Part shown: one piece after another, positions 20,774 to 59,714 of the stretch
Position numbering within the stretch: the first letter of the stretch is position 1
How the letters are laid out: every line of letters starts with the position of its first letter
Source: a bacterium UBA2214
GTDB taxonomy: Bacteria; Zhuqueibacterota; Zhuqueibacteria; Residuimicrobiales; Residuimicrobiaceae
Direction: 5' to 3'
Length of the DNA: 64,000 nucleotides
NCBI GenBank assembly: GCA_002327255.1
Contig: DCUM01000204.1
Coordinates: 781-64,780 of the forward strand
Made by a program: the position numbers and the translations under genes
The notes under the pieces: model-generated
What the model was told of the DNA's origin: nothing
Databases searched by the model: none
What the model saw: the letters and a program-made list of their open reading frames with translations, nothing else

Positions 20774-21688
20774 ATGCTGAGATGTTATCATATCTGCGAA
20801 GGCAAGATTCAGACCTGCAATGTTGCAGATGCGCAGATCCTGACCTATATCAACCCCGATGAATCCGAGAAGAAATACCTCACCGGCGATCTCAATCTCG
20901 ACGAGCACACGCTCAATTCCTGTCTTGACCCCGATGAACTGTCGCGTCTGGAATTTGAACCCGAACATGTCGCCATGATCTTCAAGCGGCCGCGCAATTA
21001 TCTGGTCGAGGACCGCTTTCTTTTCAGGGTCACCTCCATGGGCGCATTTGTATTTGCCGATAAAATCATTCTCGTCTCCTCCGAAGATGTGCCCATTTTT
21101 GATGACAAAAAGTTCACCAAGGTCACCAGTCTCAAGGATGTCATGCTCAAGATGCTCTTTCGTTCCATTTACCATTTTCTCGAGCATCTCAAGATCATCA
21201 ACATGATCACCAACGATCTGGAAGAGAAGATCAACTCCTCCATGGAAAACCGCTATCTCATCAGTCTCTTCTCCCTGGAAAAAAGTCTGGTCTATTACCT
21301 CAACGCCATCACCGCCAATTCGATCCTTTTGCAGCGCCTGAAAAACAATGGCAGCAAGATCGGCTTCATTCCCGATGAAGAGGATTTGCTCGACGACATC
21401 ATGATCGAGAATTCGCAATGTTACCGCCAGGCGGAAATCTATTCCAACATCTTGTCCGGCATGATGGATGCGCGCGCCTCCATCGTGAATAACAATATCA
21501 ACGTGCTCATGAAGACGCTCAACATCATCACCATCGGCATTATGGTCCCCACCTTTATTGTGAGCGCCTTTTCCATGAACGTCGGCATTCCGTTCCAAAA
21601 GCATCCGCAGGCTTTTTGGTTCGTTTTGGGCATCGCTCTGGTTTCGGTCTATGGATTTTACTGGATTTGGCGCTATAAAAAGTGGTGA
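20774..21688 (+). CDS. corA: CorA-family divalent cation transporter
   Basis: ORF 20759..21688 with GGGAG 7 nt before the ATG at 20774. There is a cytoplasmic N-domain and two C-terminal TM helices. The loop motif AFSMNVGIPF is a variant of GMN. Confidence 0.65.
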   Translation: MLRCYHICEGKIQTCNVADAQILTYINPDESEKKYLTGDLNLDEHTLNSCLDPDELSRLEFEPEHVAMIFKRPRNYLVEDRFLFRVTSMGAFVFADKIILVSSEDVPIFDDKKFTKVTSLKDVMLKMLFRSIYHFLEHLKIINMITNDLEEKINSSMENRYLISLFSLEKSLVYYLNAITANSILLQRLKNNGSKIGFIPDEEDLLDDIMIENSQCYRQAEIYSNILSGMMDARASIVNNNINVLMKTLNIITIGIMVPTFIVSAFSMNVGIPFQKHPQAFWFVLGIALVSVYGFYWIWRYKKW

Positions 21689-50867: not shown

Positions 50868-51890
50868 ATGTCTGATCATCCAGAGACCGCCATGCTGAGC
50901 CGATTACCGGCTTTCACCCCTTTGGCCAATTTGCCGACGCCCATTCAGCCCCTGCTGAAATGGCAGGAAAAAACCGCCGGCGTAAACTGGTGGATAAAGC
51001 GGGATGATCTCACGGCCAATGCCGCCAGCGGGAACAAGATTCGCAAGCTCGAGTATGTCGCCCATGCGGCGCTTGCCCGGGATGCGGATGTCCTCATCAC
51101 CTGCGGAGGCCTGCAATCCAATCACGCCAGAACGACTGCACTGGTCGCCGCACAATTGGGATTGAAATCACACCTGGTTCTCCGCGGCGAAATGCCCGCG
51201 CAATGGAATGGCAATTTTCTCCTGGATAAAATCGCGGGCGCCACGATCAGCTTCATAACACCCGAAGAATACGCAGCGGCTAATTGGCAGATCATGCACA
51301 CCGTGGCCGAATCGTACGCAGCAAAAGGCATCAAGGCGATCGTCATTCCCGAAGGCGCTTCCGATGCACTCGGCACCTTTGGCTATGCCAAAGCCGTAGA
51401 GGAGATCATACAACAAGCGCAGGCCATGGGGGTCTCGTTCGATGCGGTCTTTTGCGCCACCGGTTCAGGCGGTACGCAGGCCGGCCTGATACTGGGCAAA
51501 GCCCTATATGGCTGGAACGCAACCGTTTATGGCATCAACATCTGTGATGATGAAGCCTATTTTCAGCAAAAAATTCGCACCATTCTCGATGGTGTCCGGG
51601 CGGACTATCTGCCGGAATTTGCGGCAGCCCGGCAGGATATTCGGCTGCTCGATGGCCATATTGGTGATGGGTATGCCAAAACCCGGCCTGAAGAATTGGC
51701 CACGCTGATCGCGTTTGCCCGCCTCGAGGGCATCATCCTTGATCCCGTCTACTCCGGCAAAGCACTGCACGGCCTCATGAAAGAATTCAATAAAGGACGT
51801 TTTGCCGGATTGGCCAATATTCTCTTTCTGCATACCGGCGGCCTCTTTGGCCTGTTTCCCTTTGAAGCGCAATTTCAGACTGTGTGCTGA
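50868..51890 (+). CDS. PLP-dependent D-cysteine desulfhydrase / ACC deaminase family enzyme
   Basis: Internal Met of ORF 50499..51890. WIKRDDL...SGNKIRKLEY (PLP Lys), GGLQSNHARTTA. Confidence 0.75.
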   Translation: MSDHPETAMLSRLPAFTPLANLPTPIQPLLKWQEKTAGVNWWIKRDDLTANAASGNKIRKLEYVAHAALARDADVLITCGGLQSNHARTTALVAAQLGLKSHLVLRGEMPAQWNGNFLLDKIAGATISFITPEEYAAANWQIMHTVAESYAAKGIKAIVIPEGASDALGTFGYAKAVEEIIQQAQAMGVSFDAVFCATGSGGTQAGLILGKALYGWNATVYGINICDDEAYFQQKIRTILDGVRADYLPEFAAARQDIRLLDGHIGDGYAKTRPEELATLIAFARLEGIILDPVYSGKALHGLMKEFNKGRFAGLANILFLHTGGLFGLFPFEAQFQTVC

Positions 51891-51978
51891 CCAGAAGCCT
51901 CCGGCGTCATCGAAATTAAAAAAAAGGTTGCATTTTTTAATAAATATGAGTACACTGATGGAAATTAAGGAGCGTAAC

Positions 51979-52032
51979 GTGTATTTCAGCCGCGTCCATC
52001 ATCAGCACCACCATCACACCTGTGAGACTTGA
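51979..52032 (+). CDS. hisL: His-rich leader peptide of his operon (MYFSRVHHQHHHHTCET; alternative ATG start at 51946 gives 28 aa)
   Basis: AAGGAG RBS 7 nt before the GTG at 51979. Six His codons out of seven (cat cat cag cac cac cat cac). It is followed by an intrinsic terminator and hisG. Confidence 0.55.
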   Translation: MYFSRVHHQHHHHTCET

Positions 52033-52066
52033 GAGATAGGTTACGGCTGCAGTACGTTTTGATTAC

Positions 52067-52101
52067 AGGCCCGCTGATCCTATCAGCGGGCCTTTTTATT
52101 T
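52067..52101 (+). terminator. Intrinsic terminator / attenuator between his leader peptide and hisG
   Basis: AGGCCCGCTGAT-cct-ATCAGCGGGCCT 12-bp stem followed by TTTTTATTT. hisG starts 23 nt downstream. Confidence 0.65.
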
Positions 52102-52123
52102 GAAACTCGAGGAAAGGGAAAAT

Positions 52124-53020
52124 ATGATTGACTGGAATGGTCTTGATGATAAAGTCTTGAAAATCGGGTTGCCCAAAGGAAGTCTGCAGGAGGCAACGTT
52201 GCGCTTGTTGGCAAAGGCCGGTTTTCATTTTTCCGTGAGCGAAAGGTCCTACTTTCCTTCCATCGATGACCCGGATATCCAGGCCATACTCATTCGTGCA
52301 CAGGAGATCGCCAAATATGTTGAGGATGGCATCTTTGATATCGGTTTGACGGGTAAAGACTGGATTCTGGAGAATCGTGCCGATGTTGTTGAAGTCGCTG
52401 AACTCACCTATGCCAAATTGACGATGCGACCGGTCAAATGGGTGCTCGCCGTACCCACGGAGTCCCCGATAAAAAGTGTTCAGGATCTTCAGGGCAAACG
52501 CATTGCCACCGAGATCGTCAATCTCACCAAAGATTATCTGAGTGGGCACGGTGTCTCCGCGGATGTCGAATTTTCATGGGGCGCCACGGAAGTCAAAGCC
52601 CCTACACTGGTCGATGCCATTGTCGAGGTTACGGAAACCGGCAGTTCGTTGCGCGCCAATAATCTGCGCATCGTTGAAGTGCTGCTGGAGTCGCGCACCA
52701 TGCTCATCGCCAACAAGATGAGCTGGCAGAATGAGAGCAAAAGAGAACGCATTGAAAACCTCAACATGCTGCTCCAGGGCGCGATTGTGGCGGAGGGCAA
52801 AGTGGGATTGAAGATGAATGTCCGCCAAACCCAACTGGAAGGCCTCATGCAGCAATTGCCAGCCATGAAGCAGCCAACCGTTTCACCGCTGCACGGCGGT
52901 GAATGGGTTGCGGTGGAAACGATCGTCGAGGAAGCCCTGGTGCGCAAGCTCATTCCGAATCTGAAGCGTGCCGGCGCACAGGACATCATTGAATACCCGT
53001 TGAATAAAGTCATTTATTGA
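52124..53020 (+). CDS. hisG: ATP phosphoribosyltransferase, long form
   Basis: [22 protein letters not shown]...[26 protein letters not shown]-terminal regulatory domain present. Confidence 0.85.
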
Positions 53021-53023
53021 TGG

Positions 53024-54319
53024 ATGGGCACCATGATCACGGTCTATCAGGATAGCGAAATTGAATCTTTTTTACAGCGTTTCCAGTCACGGCGTCAGGA
53101 AATCGGCGTTGAAGTGGAGGCCGCGGTGCGTGAAATTCTCCGCGATGTCGAGAAACTCGGCGATGCGGCTCTGTACACCTATGCCGGAAAGTTCGATCGG
53201 GTGCCTTTGGAAGAAATCGGGCTTCTGGTCCCGGAGAGTCAATTACAAGCGGCACATAAAAATCTCGACCCGTCCTTGTTGCAGGCGTTGCGCAGCGCGC
53301 GAGAAAATATCGCGCGGTTTCACAGCCGTGCCGTGCCGCAATCGTGGATGAGTTGGGAGGCGGATGGCATTATCCTCGGACAGCGTCTGCTGCCACTCGA
53401 TCGTGTGGGTATTTATGTGCCGGGTGGACGGGCGGCCTATCCCTCTTCACTGCTGATGGGCGTGGTTCCGGCGCAAGTGGCGGGTGTGCGCGAAATTGTC
53501 ATCACAACACCCTGCGATGGCAACGGGAATATCCATGCGACGATTTTGGCCGCTGCCTGGGAACTGGGTATACGCCAGGTTTATCGCGTAGGCGGTGCCC
53601 AGGCTGTAGCCGCCCTGGCTTATGGCACCCAAACCATCCCGCGCGTGGATAAAATCGTCGGACCCGGAAATATCTATGTGGCGACGGCGAAAAAGATGGT
53701 CTATGGAACCACCGGCATCGATATGGTGGCCGGTCCCAGTGAAGTGGTCGTTGTGGCCGATGAGACAGCCGATCCGGCCTATATCGCCGCCGATCTTCTC
53801 GCTCAGGCTGAACACGATCCCCTCGCTTCTGCCATTCTCATCACGCCCTCCCGGGAACTGGCGCGTGCGACCGCCGGGCAATTGAACCGACTCGCGGCGC
53901 CGTTGCCGCGAAAAAGCATCATCGCCGAGGCCTTGCGCCACTACGGCGCCCTCTTGATCAGCAAAGATTTGCACGAAGCGGCCGCCCTGTCGAACCGTCT
54001 TGCGCCGGAACATCTTGGACTTCACCTCGACGATCCCTGGCGCTGGCTGCCTGCGTTCGTCTGCGCCGGCGCCATTTTCCTCGGTCATCATTCACCGGAA
54101 GCAGTGGGCGACTATTGGGCCGGGCCCAATCATATTCTGCCAACCAACGGTTCCGCGCGATTTGCATCGCCATTGCGCACTGAAGATTTCCTGCGCGCCA
54201 GCAGCCTGGTCTGTTACACACAGGAGGGACTCACCAAAGCGAGTCCCTTCATTCAACAATTTGCCGCCAGCGAAGGATTGCTGGCACATGCCCAATCGGT
54301 CACCATTCGAGTGAAATAA
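53024..54319 (+). CDS. hisD: Histidinol dehydrogenase
   Basis: VYRVGGAQAVAALAYGT, GPGNIYV, AQAEHDP. Confidence 0.85.
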   Translation: MGTMITVYQDSEIESFLQRFQSRRQEIGVEVEAAVREILRDVEKLGDAALYTYAGKFDRVPLEEIGLLVPESQLQAAHKNLDPSLLQALRSARENIARFHSRAVPQSWMSWEADGIILGQRLLPLDRVGIYVPGGRAAYPSSLLMGVVPAQVAGVREIVITTPCDGNGNIHATILAAAWELGIRQVYRVGGAQAVAALAYGTQTIPRVDKIVGPGNIYVATAKKMVYGTTGIDMVAGPSEVVVVADETADPAYIAADLLAQAEHDPLASAILITPSRELARATAGQLNRLAAPLPRKSIIAEALRHYGALLISKDLHEAAALSNRLAPEHLGLHLDDPWRWLPAFVCAGAIFLGHHSPEAVGDYWAGPNHILPTNGSARFASPLRTEDFLRASSLVCYTQEGLTKASPFIQQFAASEGLLAHAQSVTIRVK

Positions 54320-54322
54320 ACG

Positions 54323-55381
54323 ATGGAAAATTATTTTAAAGCGAGCGTTCTCAGTCTGCCCGGTTATGGCGCGCCTCCCCAGGAAGCGCCTGCCGCCAAA
54401 CTCAATCAAAATGAGAGTCCCTTTGACTTGCCCGCTGCCTTGAAAAAAGAGATACTCGATAAAGCGCTAACGCTGTCCTGGAATCGCTATCCGGTCAATG
54501 AGTCACCGCGATTGAAAGAAGCCCTGGCCGCCTGGCACCAGCTGGCGCCAGAGCAGATTTTGCTTGGAAACGGGTCGAACCAGCTGCTGCAAACCATCCT
54601 GAGTGGATGCACGGAACCCGGAGAGAAAATACTCTGCTGTCCGCCGACTTTTTCCCTGTTCGAGCTGTATATCGCGCTCTATGGGGGCGAAGCGCTTCTG
54701 GTACCCCGTCTTCCCGGTTCAGAAACCCCGCAAGCGGAGATCATGACGGCGATCAAAACCCGGCAACCCAAATTGATCCTGTTCTGTTCACCCAATAATC
54801 CCACTGGCAGCGAATTCGAGGTGGCTTTTGTCGAACAAGTCTGTGATGTTTCCCGCGGACTGGTCGTCGTCGATGAAGCCTATGCAGAATTCAGCACCCA
54901 ATCCTTTTTACCGCTGTTGAAACAGCGTAAAAATCTGGTCCTCTCCCGTACTTTTTCCAAAGCCTTCAGCATGGCGGGCCTGCGACTGGGATATCTGATG
55001 GCGGACGCAGAAATCATCGCGCAGTGGCGTAAAGTGAATCTGCCCTATAATATCAATCTCTTCACAGAACTGGTTGGCTTGACCCTTTTGAATCATCGTG
55101 CGCTCATCGAGCAACAGGTACAATTCATCATCCGGCAACGCGAATGGTTGCTCGCGCAGATGCAACAGATCGATGCCATCAAAGCCTGTCCTTCCGCGGC
55201 CAATTTCATCCTGTTTTCCTGTCCGGATGGCAAAGCGCTCTTTGCGCACCTCAAGGGAAGAGGCATTCTCGTGCGCGATGTGTCGGGCTATTGGGGCTTG
55301 GAAAACCATTTGCGCGTAAATGCCGGAAGTTTGCTGGAAAATCAATTATTTATCACCGCATTGCATGAATACTATCTATAG
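54323..55381 (+). CDS. hisC: Histidinol-phosphate aminotransferase
   Basis: Class II aminotransferase. PLP-Lys region SRTFSKAFSMAGLRLGY. Confidence 0.85.
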   Translation: MENYFKASVLSLPGYGAPPQEAPAAKLNQNESPFDLPAALKKEILDKALTLSWNRYPVNESPRLKEALAAWHQLAPEQILLGNGSNQLLQTILSGCTEPGEKILCCPPTFSLFELYIALYGGEALLVPRLPGSETPQAEIMTAIKTRQPKLILFCSPNNPTGSEFEVAFVEQVCDVSRGLVVVDEAYAEFSTQSFLPLLKQRKNLVLSRTFSKAFSMAGLRLGYLMADAEIIAQWRKVNLPYNINLFTELVGLTLLNHRALIEQQVQFIIRQREWLLAQMQQIDAIKACPSAANFILFSCPDGKALFAHLKGRGILVRDVSGYWGLENHLRVNAGSLLENQLFITALHEYYL

Positions 55382-55389
55382 GTGGATGC

Positions 55390-55980
55390 ATGGAACGTTG
55401 TGCTGAATGGGAGCGAAAAACCCGCGAAACCGCTGTCGCCGTACGGTTGCAGCTCGAGGGATCCGGAACCGCGGAGATCGCGACCGGAATCGGTTTTTTT
55501 GATCATCTGCTCGATGCGCTTTGCCGCCATGCCGGCCTGGATTTGTCGGTAAAAACGACGGGCGATCTTGAAGTCGATGGGCATCATACGGTTGAAGATA
55601 CGGGGATCGTGCTGGGGAAAGCCTTTGACGCGGCGCTGGGAGATCGCAGCGGGATTCGCCGCTTCGGTTACGCCTGCTGTCCGCTGGACGAAGCACTGGT
55701 GCGTGCCGTGGTGGACATCAGCGGCCGCGGCGGTTTTTATTTCACAACCGTGCTGCCGCTTGCACAGGTGGGCGCCTTCGCCGGCGAACTGCTCCCCGAG
55801 TTTTTTCGTGCACTGGCCTTGAACGGCCACTTCACCCTGCATCTGGATCTGTTGAAAGGGGAGAATCAGCATCATCTGCAGGAAGCGGCCATGAAAGCCT
55901 TTGCGATTGCCTGGCGGGAAGCGGTTATGGTGCAGGCGGCGCAGCGCGGTGTTCCCTCCACCAAGGGGACGTTGCGATGA
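55390..55980 (+). CDS. hisB: Imidazoleglycerol-phosphate dehydratase (monofunctional)
   Basis: RKTRETAVAVRLQLEGSG...FFDHLLDALCRHAGLDL...HHTVEDTGIVLG. Confidence 0.85.
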   Translation: MERCAEWERKTRETAVAVRLQLEGSGTAEIATGIGFFDHLLDALCRHAGLDLSVKTTGDLEVDGHHTVEDTGIVLGKAFDAALGDRSGIRRFGYACCPLDEALVRAVVDISGRGGFYFTTVLPLAQVGAFAGELLPEFFRALALNGHFTLHLDLLKGENQHHLQEAAMKAFAIAWREAVMVQAAQRGVPSTKGTLR

Positions 55981-56579
55981 ACCTCGGCATCATCGATTAT
56001 GGGGCGGGGAATCTGCGCAGTGTCGCCAAGGCGGTGGAATATTGCGGCGCCACAGCGCAGATTATCGCCACGCCGCGAGAGATTCTGCACATGGACAAGA
56101 TCATCCTGCCTGGCGTTGGCGCCTTTGGACACGCCATGTCCGCGCTTGCGCAGCTCGACCTGCTCGATGCGCTCAAAACATTCATGCAGAGCGGCAAACC
56201 CTTTCTCGGCATCTGTCTCGGCATGCAGGTGCTATTTGGCGACAGCGAGGAGAGTCCCGGCGTACCGGGGATCAATATCTTCCCCGGCCACGTGCGTCGT
56301 TTCCCAAACCACCTCAAAGTACCCCATTTGGGCTGGAATCAAATCATCCCCGAGAAATCCTCGCCGCTTTTCAGGGGTGTGCCGGAAGAAGCTTTCTTTT
56401 ATTTTGCACACTCGTATTATGCACATCCAGTGCAATCGGAATGTATCATTGCAACAACTGATTATCAGGGCAGTTACACAGCTGCAACGGCCCGTGAGCC
56501 TGTATTTGGCATTCAATTTCATCCGGAAAAATCACAAAGCAACGGTCTGCTTGTATTGAACAATTTTATCACGCTTTAG
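55977..56579 (+). CDS. hisH: Imidazole glycerol phosphate synthase, glutamine amidotransferase subunit
   Basis: IIDYGAGNLRSV, GICLGMQVLF (Cys nucleophile), HPEKS. Confidence 0.85.
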   Translation: MNLGIIDYGAGNLRSVAKAVEYCGATAQIIATPREILHMDKIILPGVGAFGHAMSALAQLDLLDALKTFMQSGKPFLGICLGMQVLFGDSEESPGVPGINIFPGHVRRFPNHLKVPHLGWNQIIPEKSSPLFRGVPEEAFFYFAHSYYAHPVQSECIIATTDYQGSYTAATAREPVFGIQFHPEKSQSNGLLVLNNFITL

Positions 56580-57009
56580 CCGGAAGCATTTAACCTGAAT
56601 AATTCACACAACACCAGGGCACAAAGCTCACAAAGAGCACCGGGTGAATTTATTGATTAAACAATATTGGATTGATCCCTTAAATGATAACCGTCATATA
56701 CTTCGTGTGCCTGGTGGACTTTGCGTGAAAAATGCATTTTGAAACCTGTTGTGCCGAATCATATGGTATCCAGGCAAGTCGCAGCTTTTGTTGGCCTGTT
56801 TGCTGATTCATCAGGTTAAATACTCCGAAAAAACGAGGCGGAATCGATAATTGTAGTGTTTTGGATTGAAACCTTATCAACCGTTTTTTGGCAATGCATG
56901 CGCCTGGTGGTTGCGTTCAGTTTTGAGACTTGGCGCTTTCTATCGCAAGGTTGGCAGGCATGTTACTGCTGCCAATTCCGGTGTGTGCGGGTTCAGATCA
57001 GGAGGTAAA

Positions 57010-57744
57010 TTGGAGTTCATACCTGCCATCGATATTCTGCACGGACAATGTGTCCGGCTGCTGCAGGGAGATCGTCAACGGGTCACCGTCTACCATGAAG
57101 ATCCATTGCAAATCGCGCACCACTGGCGGGATCAGGGCGCGAAGCGGCTGCACATTGTCAATCTGGATGGCGCCTTTGGCGCGGCCAATGACAACAGCGC
57201 CATCGTGCGGGAAATCATTTTGTCGGAGACGCTCCCTGTACAGCTCGGGGGTGGTATCCGCACGCTCGATCAGGCCCGTTCCTGGATGGATATGGGGGTT
57301 TCCAGGATCATCCTCGGCACCATCGCCATAGGCACACCGGCTCTGCTGGATGAGATGCTGACATTGTTTTCCCCGGAGCGCATTATCGTTGGACTCGATG
57401 CCCGCGGCGGACACATTGCCATCAGGGGCTGGGAGCAGGTCACTTCCGCGCAATTGCTTCCCACGGCGCAGGCCCTGCAGGCGCGCGGCGTCCTGCGCAT
57501 CATCTACACCGATATCAGCAGGGACGGTGCCCTGACCGGACCCGATTTGGCCGGCACACGCCAATTGTGCGAAAAGACGCAGCTCAAAATAATCGCCTCG
57601 GGTGGTTTTGCGAATCTGGATCATTTGAAAGCGCTTTGCCAGTTGCCGTGTGCAAACCTGGAGGGGGCGGTTTTGGGCAAAGCGCTTTACGAAAACAAGG
57701 TGTCGTTTATGGAATTATCGCAGTTGATGAAAACGATGGAGTAG
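57010..57744 (+). CDS. hisA: ProFAR isomerase
   Basis: TTG start after a perfect [53 protein letters not shown]. Confidence 0.8.
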
Positions 57745-57749
57745 CGGTC

Positions 57750-58508
57750 ATGCTCGCCAGAAGGATCATCCCGTGTCTGGACGTCAAGGAAGGGCGCGTG
57801 GTCAAAGGAACCCAATTTGTCAATTTGCGCGATGCCGGCGATCCGGTTGAGCAAGCGCGTTTTTATGACGAGCAGGGGGCTGACGAACTTGTTTTTTTGG
57901 ATATCACGGCATCCGCAGAATACCGTGATATCATCTATGATGTAGTAGCGCATACCGCTGAGCAGGTTTTCATGCCGCTGACGGTCGGCGGCGGCATTCG
58001 CACGGTGGCGGATGCCCGTAAATTGCTGCAGAGTGGTGCCGATAAAATCGCCATCAACACAGCGGCGCTGCAGGAGCCGGAACTGGTCGCTGCGTGCGCG
58101 CGTCAGTTCGGCAGTCAAGCGGTCGTCGTGGCCATCGATGCGCGCCGGATATCGGCCGGGAGGTGGCAAGTCTTTATTCATGGAGGTCGCACCGCCATGG
58201 ATGTGGATGCGGTACAATGGGCACTCGAGGCAGAGCACAGAGGCGCCGGTGAAATTCTTCTCACCTCGATGGATCGCGACGGTACCAGGGATGGTTACGA
58301 TATAGATCTCACGCGCGCCATCAGCACCCGCGTCAACATCCCTGTGATTGCTTCGGGGGGCTGCGGCGAGGCCGCCCATTTTTTTGATGTCTTTGAAAAT
58401 GGCAAAGCCGACGCCGCATTGGCTGCATCGGTCTTCCATTACCGGCACAACAGCATCGCCGAAATCAAGAACTATCTCAAGGAGAGAGGCATCCATGTCC
58501 GAATATGA
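57750..58508 (+). CDS. hisF: Imidazole glycerol phosphate synthase cyclase subunit
   Basis: [32 protein letters not shown]. Confidence 0.85.
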
Positions 58509-58842
58509 ATCTCTGAAACAGGATAAATTTCTATCAGACCTGAAGTTTGACCAGCAGGGACTCATTCCCGCCATCATCCAGGATGAAGCAGATGGCGCCA
58601 TCCTCATGTTGGGCTATATGAATGAAAAGAGTTTGCAGATAACCCTGGAGAGCGGTCAGGTGACATTTTGGAGCCGTTCGCGGAAAAAGTACTGGACCAA
58701 AGGGGAGACCTCCGGACATTATCTCTATCTCGTCAAGATATTCACCGATTGCGATCGTGATGCCTTGTTGCTGCGCGTTCGCCCCATTGGACCGACATGC
58801 CATACAGGCAAACGAAGCTGTTTTTCCTGGGAGATGGCGTAA
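58495..58842 (+). CDS. hisI: Phosphoribosyl-AMP cyclohydrolase (HisI only, no HisE domain)
   Basis: [35 protein letters not shown]. It overlaps the hisF stop by 14 nt. Confidence 0.8.
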
Positions 58843-58892
58843 AAGATCAACCTTCGGGGACTCGGATAACCGTTCCACGAGGAGGGAGGCAG

Positions 58893-59714
58893 ATGCACGC
58901 AAGAGTGGTTGTTCTGTGTCTATTAATCATTTGTGCGGAGGGCCGCACGGGTAGTGCGCAAAAGCTCCTGACACCGGAGACCTTTCAGGAATTCCTCTAT
59001 CCCGGTGCAAAACCGGAACCCGCTGCCATCAAGGCGCTGGATCAGAAAATTCTCACCACATTTCCGGATGCCAGACCTGTCAAACTGACCTCCCTGTTGA
59101 CGCCGACCGCGTGGCAGAAGGTCGTCGCTTACTATACGATCATGACCGGGCTGCCATTCCGTCAGATCGGTCCACGATTTTACTTCATCTTTTCCTCTCG
59201 CAACGGCATCCCGACCGATTATATCGAGGTATGTCCGATTCAGATCCTGCGCGGATCGTCGGATTTCTGGCCGGCACGCATCAATCTGGTTCTGCTTTCG
59301 TTTCCCTTGGCCGGCTTGACGCCGGCCAGCCAACCCACCACGTCCGAATTGAAACCTTTGACGGGCCGCCTCTGGTATCCGGGGCAAACAAGGAACGACC
59401 TGGCGGCGCTGAAAAACCATGAACTGGGTGCCGGAGCGCAGGTGCTCATTATCCTCACAGAAGACTCTTTTGACAAGGTCTATTCCTTTTTCAGACGCAA
59501 TTATGGCCGTATTTATATTGTCAATGCTCATCGTGAACATTTTTCCGAGCGGGATTTTGAATTTGATGCCTCCAGCGCCTTATCAACCCGCCGTCACGGC
59601 AAGGAGTTGCACATTCGCGTCGAGGAAAACCCTCTGCTGGTGGATCGTGAAGGCAACAGTGAACGGTTATTGGGTAAATGTCTGGTGCAATATACCTTCT
59701 GGCCTGCCCAATAA
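58893..59714 (+). CDS. Secreted hypothetical protein
   Basis: Internal Met with GGAGGGAGG RBS. Signal peptide MHARVVVLCLLIICAEGRTGSAQ. Confidence 0.5.
   Translation: MHARVVVLCLLIICAEGRTGSAQKLLTPETFQEFLYPGAKPEPAAIKALDQKILTTFPDARPVKLTSLLTPTAWQKVVAYYTIMTGLPFRQIGPRFYFIFSSRNGIPTDYIEVCPIQILRGSSDFWPARINLVLLSFPLAGLTPASQPTTSELKPLTGRLWYPGQTRNDLAALKNHELGAGAQVLIILTEDSFDKVYSFFRRNYGRIYIVNAHREHFSERDFEFDASSALSTRRHGKELHIRVEENPLLVDREGNSERLLGKCLVQYTFWPAQ

Follow-up and report, generated by a model that had tools for sequence, protein, structure and literature searches.

A probable His-codon leader-peptide attenuator ahead of the histidine operon in candidate division KSB1

We analyzed a 64-kb stretch of contig DCUM01000204.1 (64,000 nucleotides, referred to here as the window) and found a compact candidate regulatory element between a promoter and hisG, the first structural gene of a hisGDCBHAFI operon. 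The element very likely works as a ribosome-mediated transcription attenuator of the his operon that senses His-tRNA, a reading that is built on sequence and on comparison with related lineages. It has the parts by which leader-peptide attenuators are recognized: the promoter is followed, before the first structural gene, by a translatable short open reading frame (ORF) with start signals, the ORF contains clustered codons for the end product of the operon, His, which are conserved in relatives, and an intrinsic terminator separates the leader ORF from that gene. We infer the start of transcription, translation of the leader, stalling, and the actual switching from these parts, which are as follows.

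51914..51927, plus strand: A-rich tract, UP-element-like from sequence reading, with a putative UP-element function
51928..51933, plus strand: -35 box TTGCAT, from sequence reading and KSB1 conservation
51951..51956, plus strand: -10 box TACACT, separated from the -35 box by a 17-nt spacer, from sequence reading and KSB1 conservation
51967..51972, plus strand: Shine-Dalgarno sequence AAGGAG of the leader ORF, 6 nt 5' of the GTG
51979..52032, plus strand: hisL-like leader peptide ORF of 17 codons, MYFSRVHHQHHHHTCET, with a GTG start and a TGA stop at 52030-52032
51981..52000, plus strand: segment 1, the 5' part of the ORF, predicted by folding to be the partner of segment 2 when free of ribosomes
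51997..52017, plus strand: regulatory His codons CAT CAT CAG CAC CAC CAT CAC, the proposed stall site, from sequence reading
52033..52055, plus strand: segment 2, predicted alternative partner of segment 1 or of the terminator 5' arm and loop, with the antiterminator 5' arm at 52035-52049
52067..52102, plus strand: intrinsic terminator (segments 3 and 4), with a stem of 52067-52078 paired to 52082-52093, followed by TTTTTATTT

A preliminary description of this DNA, made from its letters alone, had proposed a 17-codon GTG ORF with an AAGGAG ribosome binding site (RBS), six His codons among seven consecutive codons, and a possible TTGCAT-17-TACACT promoter at 51928-51956, and all three were read at the positions given above. 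The lone interruption of the His run is CAG (Gln). Transcription is predicted to start near 51962-51964 (∼51963). A generic sigma-70 scan did not pick up the promoter, because TTGCAT agrees with TTGACA at only 3 of 6 positions. An alternative in-frame ATG is found at 51958, but it is probably untranscribed, since only 2 nt separate it from the -10 box; the ATG of the closest relative, locus L161, aligns with the window GTG (MYFCRI... versus MYFSRV...). At least five His codons in seven occur at only two sites in the window when both strands are considered, the leader and position 21520. The second of these His-dense sites (21520-21545, plus strand) presumably lies within a protein-coding gene.

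The terminator stem, which spans 52067-52093, has 12 bp, 8 of them G-C, and a 3-nt loop, and the hairpin energy is -21.1 kcal/mol. It begins 34 nt past the leader stop, and the hisG ATG lies 91 nt past the same stop. The 12-bp stem with its U-run and the placement of the leader shortly upstream of hisG had both been described correctly, with distances (35 and 90 nt, respectively) that are corrected here. Folding of the whole leader gave a 5' hairpin and the terminator, a structure more stable than that of shuffled sequences (z = -3.6; 0 of 200 shuffles as stable).

If the element is an attenuator, transcription would begin at ∼51963 from the TTGCAT-17-TACACT promoter, and a ribosome would load on AAGGAG/GTG and read the 17-codon leader behind the moving RNA polymerase. 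With His-tRNA plentiful, the ribosome would reach the TGA at 52030 and mask the start of segment 2 (to ∼52042); after its release, segment 1 (51981-52000) would re-pair with segment 2 (52035-52055). In both situations the terminator 5' arm would be free, the 52067-52093 hairpin would form, and transcription would stop in the U-run before hisG. With His-tRNA scarce, the ribosome would stall on the six His codons (51997-52017), leaving segment 1 masked and segment 2 exposed, and segment 2 (52035-52049) could then capture 52066-52084, a stretch that takes in the terminator 5' arm, its loop, and the opening 3 nt of the 3' arm. Terminator formation would be delayed, and polymerase would read through into hisGDCBHAFI.

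The lineage of the window allowed a comparison with relatives. HisG homologues at 72 to 89% identity were repeatedly named candidate division KSB1, and the local synteny agrees with that of KSB1 assemblies (a lipoyl synthase-like radical SAM protein, peptide deformylase, ROK, and then his). KSB1, also named Zhuqueibacterota, is a member of the Fibrobacterota-Chlorobiota-Bacteroidota (FCB) superphylum (PMC11683472). The lineage had been called high-GC; the GC content of the window is in fact moderate, at 54.7%. Recent transfer of an enteric his operon was considered and ruled out, since the window HisG is just 31% identical to E. coli HisG. A HisG scan of genome and metagenome contig collections gave nothing closer than 68% identity among the matches listed. 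Contigs encoding the closest HisG protein homologues provided the loci of relatives, and the resulting KSB1 set comprises 11 distinct lineages, namely, the window (100%) and ten others with HisG 75 to 89% identical. Their leader peptides, other than that of the window, are given below by locus.

L161: MYFCRIHHHHHHHTYVT, the closest orthologue of the window leader
L178: MRFNSLHHHHTNHSCHPGKGG
L163: MKIQRMTYRHIHHYHHVHHGSQ
L166: MKINTCKYPHHHLHHTWTLVR
L169: MTTINQKHHHHVHHHAEALLS
L174: MLHHHHHHHYHHNTAMVGG
L171: MYCHHHSHHHHSKILSGGG
L175: MQRYQTTHHHNLKSSISGGW
L173: MLNYTVHHHHHLHIT
L167/L168: MKMMNDKYNHAVNPHCVHPGAR, the one leader that lacks a His cluster, its three His codons being scattered

A conserved promoter, a short ORF, and a terminator (a GC-rich hairpin with a U-run) 31 to 96 nt before hisG were found in all 11 lineages. 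The ten other leaders are 15 to 22 codons long and contain 3 to 9 His codons, and, counting the window, the His codons are clustered in 10 of the 11 leader ORFs, at differing nucleotide sequences. Conservation of the His run in relatives, which the preliminary description had put forward as a check, is thus seen in all but the degenerate L167/L168 lineage, across varied sequences and varied upstream genes. The terminator stem shows compensatory changes across the set. Lineages differ freely in their use of CAT or CAC but retain the frame, start, and stop, a pattern that fits selection on translation and not on an RNA motif.

In the window, the upstream neighbor of the element is a D-cysteine desulfhydrase family gene, identified with NCBIfam, which ends with its stop at 51890. 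Since the terminator lies downstream of this gene and on the same strand, it could in principle serve that gene, with the His-rich ORF having arisen by chance; we give this explanation almost no credence. The hairpin is 177 nt beyond the stop of the upstream gene, with a conserved promoter in between, and at least five His codons in seven recur at just one other site in the 64-kb window. In addition, the gene 5' of the element varies by lineage, being a PALP enzyme, acetate kinase, HAD hydrolase, ROK, or a divergent kinase (APH gene), so that promoter, His ORF, and terminator stand before hisG behind wholly different genes, one of them divergently oriented. This variation shows that the element goes with hisG, whichever gene precedes it.

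Conservation of a His-rich ORF might also be expected if its product were a functional micropeptide, metal-binding or signaling, and not a regulatory leader. His-rich peptides can bind Ni, Zn, or Cu, and the translation signals of the ORF are good. Against this, the peptides share neither residues nor length across KSB1 outside the His run, their C-terminal residues obey the needs of RNA pairing (a GGUGGG antiterminator arm, for example, encodes Gly-Gly), no Pfam match was obtained, and in every case, just ahead of his biosynthesis genes, the ORF is flanked by a promoter and a terminator. We consider a functional micropeptide extremely improbable.

The promoter suggested in the preliminary description is supported by its conservation: the motif TTGCAn (or a near variant)-17-TAnnnT is kept in 11 of 11 lineages, with an A-rich tract at the equivalent position in most relatives, and in the lineages that have an RBS the -10 box lies 21 to 24 nt 5' of the leader start codon. 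Purine-rich, RBS-like motifs equivalent to AAGGAG are present in L161, L171, L173, L174, and L178. The 5' untranslated region would be ∼21 to 26 nt in the window and in L161, L171, L173, L174, L175, and L178, most of which have a recognizable Shine-Dalgarno sequence. At L163:2838-2972, L166:1377-1505, L167:2823-2957, and L169:2847-2973, the leader ATG lies 5 to 7 nt past the -10 box and is not preceded by an RBS, and so the leader peptide in these four loci would be translated in leaderless fashion. As a separate observation, the KSB1 his promoter is sigma-70-like (TTGCAn, 17 nt, TAnnnT, with an A-rich tract upstream in most lineages). Bacteroidota promoters have a -33/-7 consensus, TTTG ... 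TAnnTTTG, and the KSB1 promoter hints that promoter recognition in this FCB phylum may differ from that in Bacteroidota.

The switch itself was examined by folding each leader with the RNA masked as by a ribosome, either stalled at the His codons or positioned at the stop codon. In every lineage, the predicted antiterminator 5' arm lies at or just past the leader stop, where it is free when the ribosome is His-stalled and covered when the ribosome terminates. For the window, the 1:2 pairing joins 51981-51985 and 51987-51992 with 52044-52055, and 51996-52000, which belongs to the His codons, with 52035-52040; the outer 1:2 helix is kept in L161 despite base changes. The antiterminator predicted for the stalled state is a 15-bp interrupted helix of -12.4 to -13.7 kcal/mol in which 52035-52049, with GAUAGG at 52035-52040 and CGGCUG at 52044-52049, pairs with 52066-52084 and so extends past the terminator 5' arm into the loop and the opening 3 nt of the 3' arm. 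Once the ribosome has reached the stop codon, it masks the RNA to ∼52042, and the remaining antiterminator pairing amounts to only -5.3 kcal/mol. In stepwise folding with a stalled ribosome, the window antiterminator persisted until 52087 was transcribed, and with a ribosome at the stop codon the terminator nucleated by 52087.

Two other candidate antiterminator arms in the window were rejected. UUCAGCCGCG (51985-51994) forms the best duplex with the terminator 5' arm (-10.2 kcal/mol), but its position is 5' of the stall site, and L161 lacks it. AUCAGC, within the His run (-9.6 kcal/mol), would be covered by the stalled ribosome.

The antiterminators of relatives are stronger than that of the window (those of L166, L171, and L174 are strong), and they track changes in the terminator sequence. 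In several lineages segment 2 plainly mimics the terminator 3' arm, as expected of an antiterminator, and three pairs of terminator arms are each accompanied by a matching segment 2.

L171 and L175: terminator arms GCCUUCCG / CGGAAGGC, segment 2 CGGGAGG
L173 and L178: terminator arms GCCCACC / GGUGGGC, segment 2 GGUGGG
L174: terminator arms GCCUGCCAU / AUGGCAGGC, segment 2 AUGGUAGG

This three-way co-variation, involving both terminator arms and segment 2, is the strongest sign that the antiterminator is functional. In 6 of 10 lineages, the pairing of segment 2 with the terminator was more stable than that of dinucleotide shuffles (Fisher P = 4e-6), and the same duplex test found the E. coli his antiterminator as a positive control (P = 0.004). 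In this test the first target stopped where the terminator 3' arm begins, which left out the GAUAGG:CCUAUC helix of the window; with the target extended by 3 nt, an extension made post hoc, the family-level Fisher P value was 7.5e-4. MAFFT and RNAalifold applied to the 11 leaders recovered the terminator alone, with register errors. Divergence among the leaders is too great for the 1:2 and 2:3 pairings to be tested by column-wise covariation, and per-sequence folding with comparison at the level of helices was therefore used. Attenuation by ribosome stalling, as the preliminary description had read the element, is supported by the promoter, His ORF, and terminator conserved across KSB1 and by the co-varying segments.

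Several observations weigh against attenuation, most of them in the window itself. A Gln codon breaks the His run. The 1:2 hairpin taken by itself is modest (z = -1.68). The antiterminator is interrupted, with helices of 6+3+3+3 bp (L161 is similar), and is no better than that of a shuffled segment 2 (P = 0.50, or P = 0.33 with the extended target). The terminator wins at equilibrium in all cases, so that any switch must be kinetic, as in classical systems. Among the relatives, L167/L168, whose HisG is 82% identical to that of the window, has the promoter and terminator but just three scattered His codons, and the His run of L175 is HHH only; the His run can therefore decay. Finally, the combined P values overstate independence, because the KSB1 lineages share ancestry. 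The alternative antiterminator pairing that the preliminary description had suggested looking for is thus possible in the window and stronger in relatives, although the window version does no better than shuffles, and for this reason we infer the window switch mainly from its family. L167 (L167:2823-2957) and L168 have a 22-codon ORF and a weak antiterminator; their element looks like a decaying or repurposed attenuator.

The same could be asked of the window, where the element might descend from a His attenuator whose antiterminator is now too weak, leaving the hairpin as a near-constitutive damper and regulation to feedback inhibition of HisG. The pairing of segment 2 with the terminator does not exceed shuffles there, the antiterminator is the weakest of the set alongside that of L167, a lineage without a His run, the run is interrupted by Gln, and HisG has a C-terminal regulatory domain. 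However, the six His codons, RBS, start codon, and promoter are undamaged, and two other independent assemblies have an identical leader. Samples with an identical leader include those behind SRR5323296 and ERZ27315072. An antiterminator of -12 to -14 kcal/mol can also form in the stalled state, and a ribosome at the stop codon precludes it. We regard such decay as unlikely and favor a functional attenuator, with the weak antiterminator of this genome as the main reservation; the attenuator may be partly decayed and of low dynamic range.

The element was also compared with known RNA families. RF00514 (His_leader) gave no match in 51600-52400 even at E ≤ 10, nor did it match any of nine KSB1 relatives' loci at its gathering threshold (49 bits), in a run in which the E. 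coli hisL control scored 131.6 bits; Rfam searched over the whole window at the gathering threshold gave no match. The Rfam His_leader match that the preliminary description had suggested seeking was thus not obtained, and the element appears hisL-like in function while standing outside that family. Assignment to Thr_leader (24 bits against a gathering threshold of 55), Trp_leader (16.5 against 41), or small RNA families was rejected, these hits being subthreshold and all resting on the terminator. The Pfam family of His_leader peptides is PF08047; Pfam at E ≤ 10 gave no family for the extended window peptide and three relatives, a weak test for peptides so short and of such low complexity.

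A different sensor might act through the same terminator, either a protein or a riboswitch-like RNA (T-box or HutP-like) that reads the CAU/CAC stretch untranslated. Histidine T-boxes and protein-mediated antitermination do govern his and hut genes in other phyla (PMC9413887). Here the leader has no Rfam match apart from the weak, terminator-driven ones to the Thr and Trp leaders, and the CAY run is always in frame in a short ORF that has a start signal and soon reaches a stop codon, and CAT and CAC alternate freely in it. A T-box search of 51600-52400 at E ≤ 10 found no match, and the T-box model does not fit, because the ∼105 nt between the predicted start site and the terminator are too few. 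Another sensor is, in our judgment, highly unlikely, and sensing by a translating ribosome remains the preferred explanation.

The window element resembles hisL of E. coli and Salmonella (RF00514) in having a leader of 16 to 17 codons with a His run (E. coli, MTRVQFKHHHHHHHPD), a GC-rich intrinsic terminator directly before hisG, and a predicted antiterminator that competes for the terminator 5' arm; the gene order hisGDCBHAFI is also that of the E. coli his operon. Unlike E. coli, the window has a GTG start for the leader and monofunctional HisB and HisI, and the distance from the stop to the terminator is 34 nt, compared to 64 nt in E. coli. Such a short distance leaves room for four segments, as in trp, but not for the six (A to F) of enteric his; the six-segment layout was not found in the window, and only a 1:2, 2:3, 3:4 arrangement fits. 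The same 1:2, 2:3, 3:4 logic is that of E. coli trpL, where likewise segment 1 overlaps the regulatory codons, segment 2 begins just past the stop and is partly masked by the terminating ribosome, and segments 3 and 4 make up the terminator. The window differs from trpL in that its codons are His and not Trp, its predicted 2:3 pairing is interrupted and reaches into the terminator loop, and there is no homology, as the subthreshold Trp_leader score indicates. From its sequence, the layout appears closer to trpL than to E. coli his.

Vitreschak et al. 2004 reportedly mentioned candidate amino-acid attenuators in Bacteroidetes/Chlorobi. A review-type analysis of his genes in the Bacteroidota-Chlorobiota superphylum makes no mention of leaders (PMC8305728), and His leader-peptide attenuators have been predicted in Firmicutes, namely, in the Bacillus cereus group, Peptostreptococcaceae, and Erysipelotrichales (PMC9413887, PMC2965389). 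Like the KSB1 elements, those of Firmicutes have lineage-specific leaders, terminators, and antiterminators that are missed by RF00514 and were found upstream of his genes by comparative genomics; they differ in phylum and in gene context (hisZ or hisS paralogues in bacilli), and their sequences are not expected to be related to those of KSB1. Our literature search found no report of His leaders in KSB1 or Acidobacteriota.

Similar elements were also found beyond KSB1. A set of 160 loci from other phyla was assembled on the basis of HisG similarity, and in 31 of them an ORF upstream of hisG has at least four His codons in seven; those of the 31 that are taxonomically labeled are all from Acidobacteriota. 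A detectable terminator follows ∼25 nt past the leader stop in 25 of the 31, several with significant antiterminator pairing. The acidobacterial leaders, from Bryobacteraceae, Terriglobia, and Solibacteraceae, are exemplified by MLRALAHHHHHHHLSYRVACQWANA and occur at L017:3444-3640, L058:3519-3700, and ∼25 further loci (L015 to L159). They (L017, L018, L056, L058, L063, L073, L104, and others) share with KSB1 the compact layout of a short His-run ORF and a terminator; their terminator is GCCCGC...GCGGGC, and its 3' arm is mimicked by a segment overlapping the end of the ORF. In contrast to KSB1, the first controlled gene would be hisI, followed by hisG, and hisI accounts for the ∼450-nt gap between leader and hisG. 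HisG of these Acidobacteriota is 60 to 65% identical to that of the window. In two unclassified loci, L008 and L094, this element stands immediately before hisG.

It was correct to say, as the preliminary description had, that his attenuation is best known in Gammaproteobacteria, but its rarity elsewhere was overstated, given the Firmicutes predictions and the many acidobacterial loci. Because so many acidobacterial loci have such leaders, His leader attenuation seems unexceptional outside Proteobacteria and simply unannotated, and histidine leader control would be far wider than the Rfam His_leader family suggests, since that family recognizes the proteobacterial type only. Most likely, the KSB1 leaders are a real element of known mechanism that is not listed in current RNA databases. 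We put at somewhat better than even the chance that the KSB1 leaders, perhaps together with those of Acidobacteriota, L008, and L094, form an undescribed and widespread family of four-segment His attenuators, independent of enterobacterial hisL and leaderless in L163, L166, L167, and L169. Were this so, tight coupling of transcription and translation and codon-level sensing of amino acids would be ordinary in several phyla that are large and mostly uncultured, and the element would be wholly missing from present RNA family databases. For the uncultured phylum KSB1, the element is a concrete, testable regulatory candidate that implies transcription-translation coupling close enough for attenuation. 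The mechanism itself is textbook, and the gain is in distribution and annotation, not in principle: the KSB1 and acidobacterial leaders could seed a new RNA family model, and short ORFs now called "hypothetical" and terminators treated as "intergenic" ahead of his operons could be better annotated.

The genes that the element would control were assigned from NCBIfam matches.

52124..53020, plus strand: hisG, long form with a C-terminal regulatory domain, the first structural gene (TIGR00070, 181 bits; TIGR03455, 103 bits)
53024..58842, plus strand: hisD, hisC, hisB (IGPD only), hisH, hisA, hisF, and hisI (cyclohydrolase only)

These matches confirmed the order hisG-D-C-B-H-A-F-I and the monofunctional hisB and hisI that had been noted before. 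Neither hisE nor a histidinol-phosphatase gene is in the window his operon. The operon is followed by an ORF of 305 amino acids (58797-59714) that overlaps the end of hisI and matched no NCBIfam or Pfam family. Gene packing is otherwise tight and is broken by a hisH-hisA spacer of ∼430 nt (56580-57007) that has no ORF of at least 60 amino acids; folding, Rfam, and repeat searches of the spacer gave no Rfam match, significant fold, or further copy in the window. The spacer contains a 19-nt inverted repeat (56585-56603 / 56806-56824) and two diverged copies of a ∼130-nt element, 193 to 194 nt apart (56667/56861 and 56706/56899), which have in common a TGYGCCTGGTGG...TTGCGT motif.

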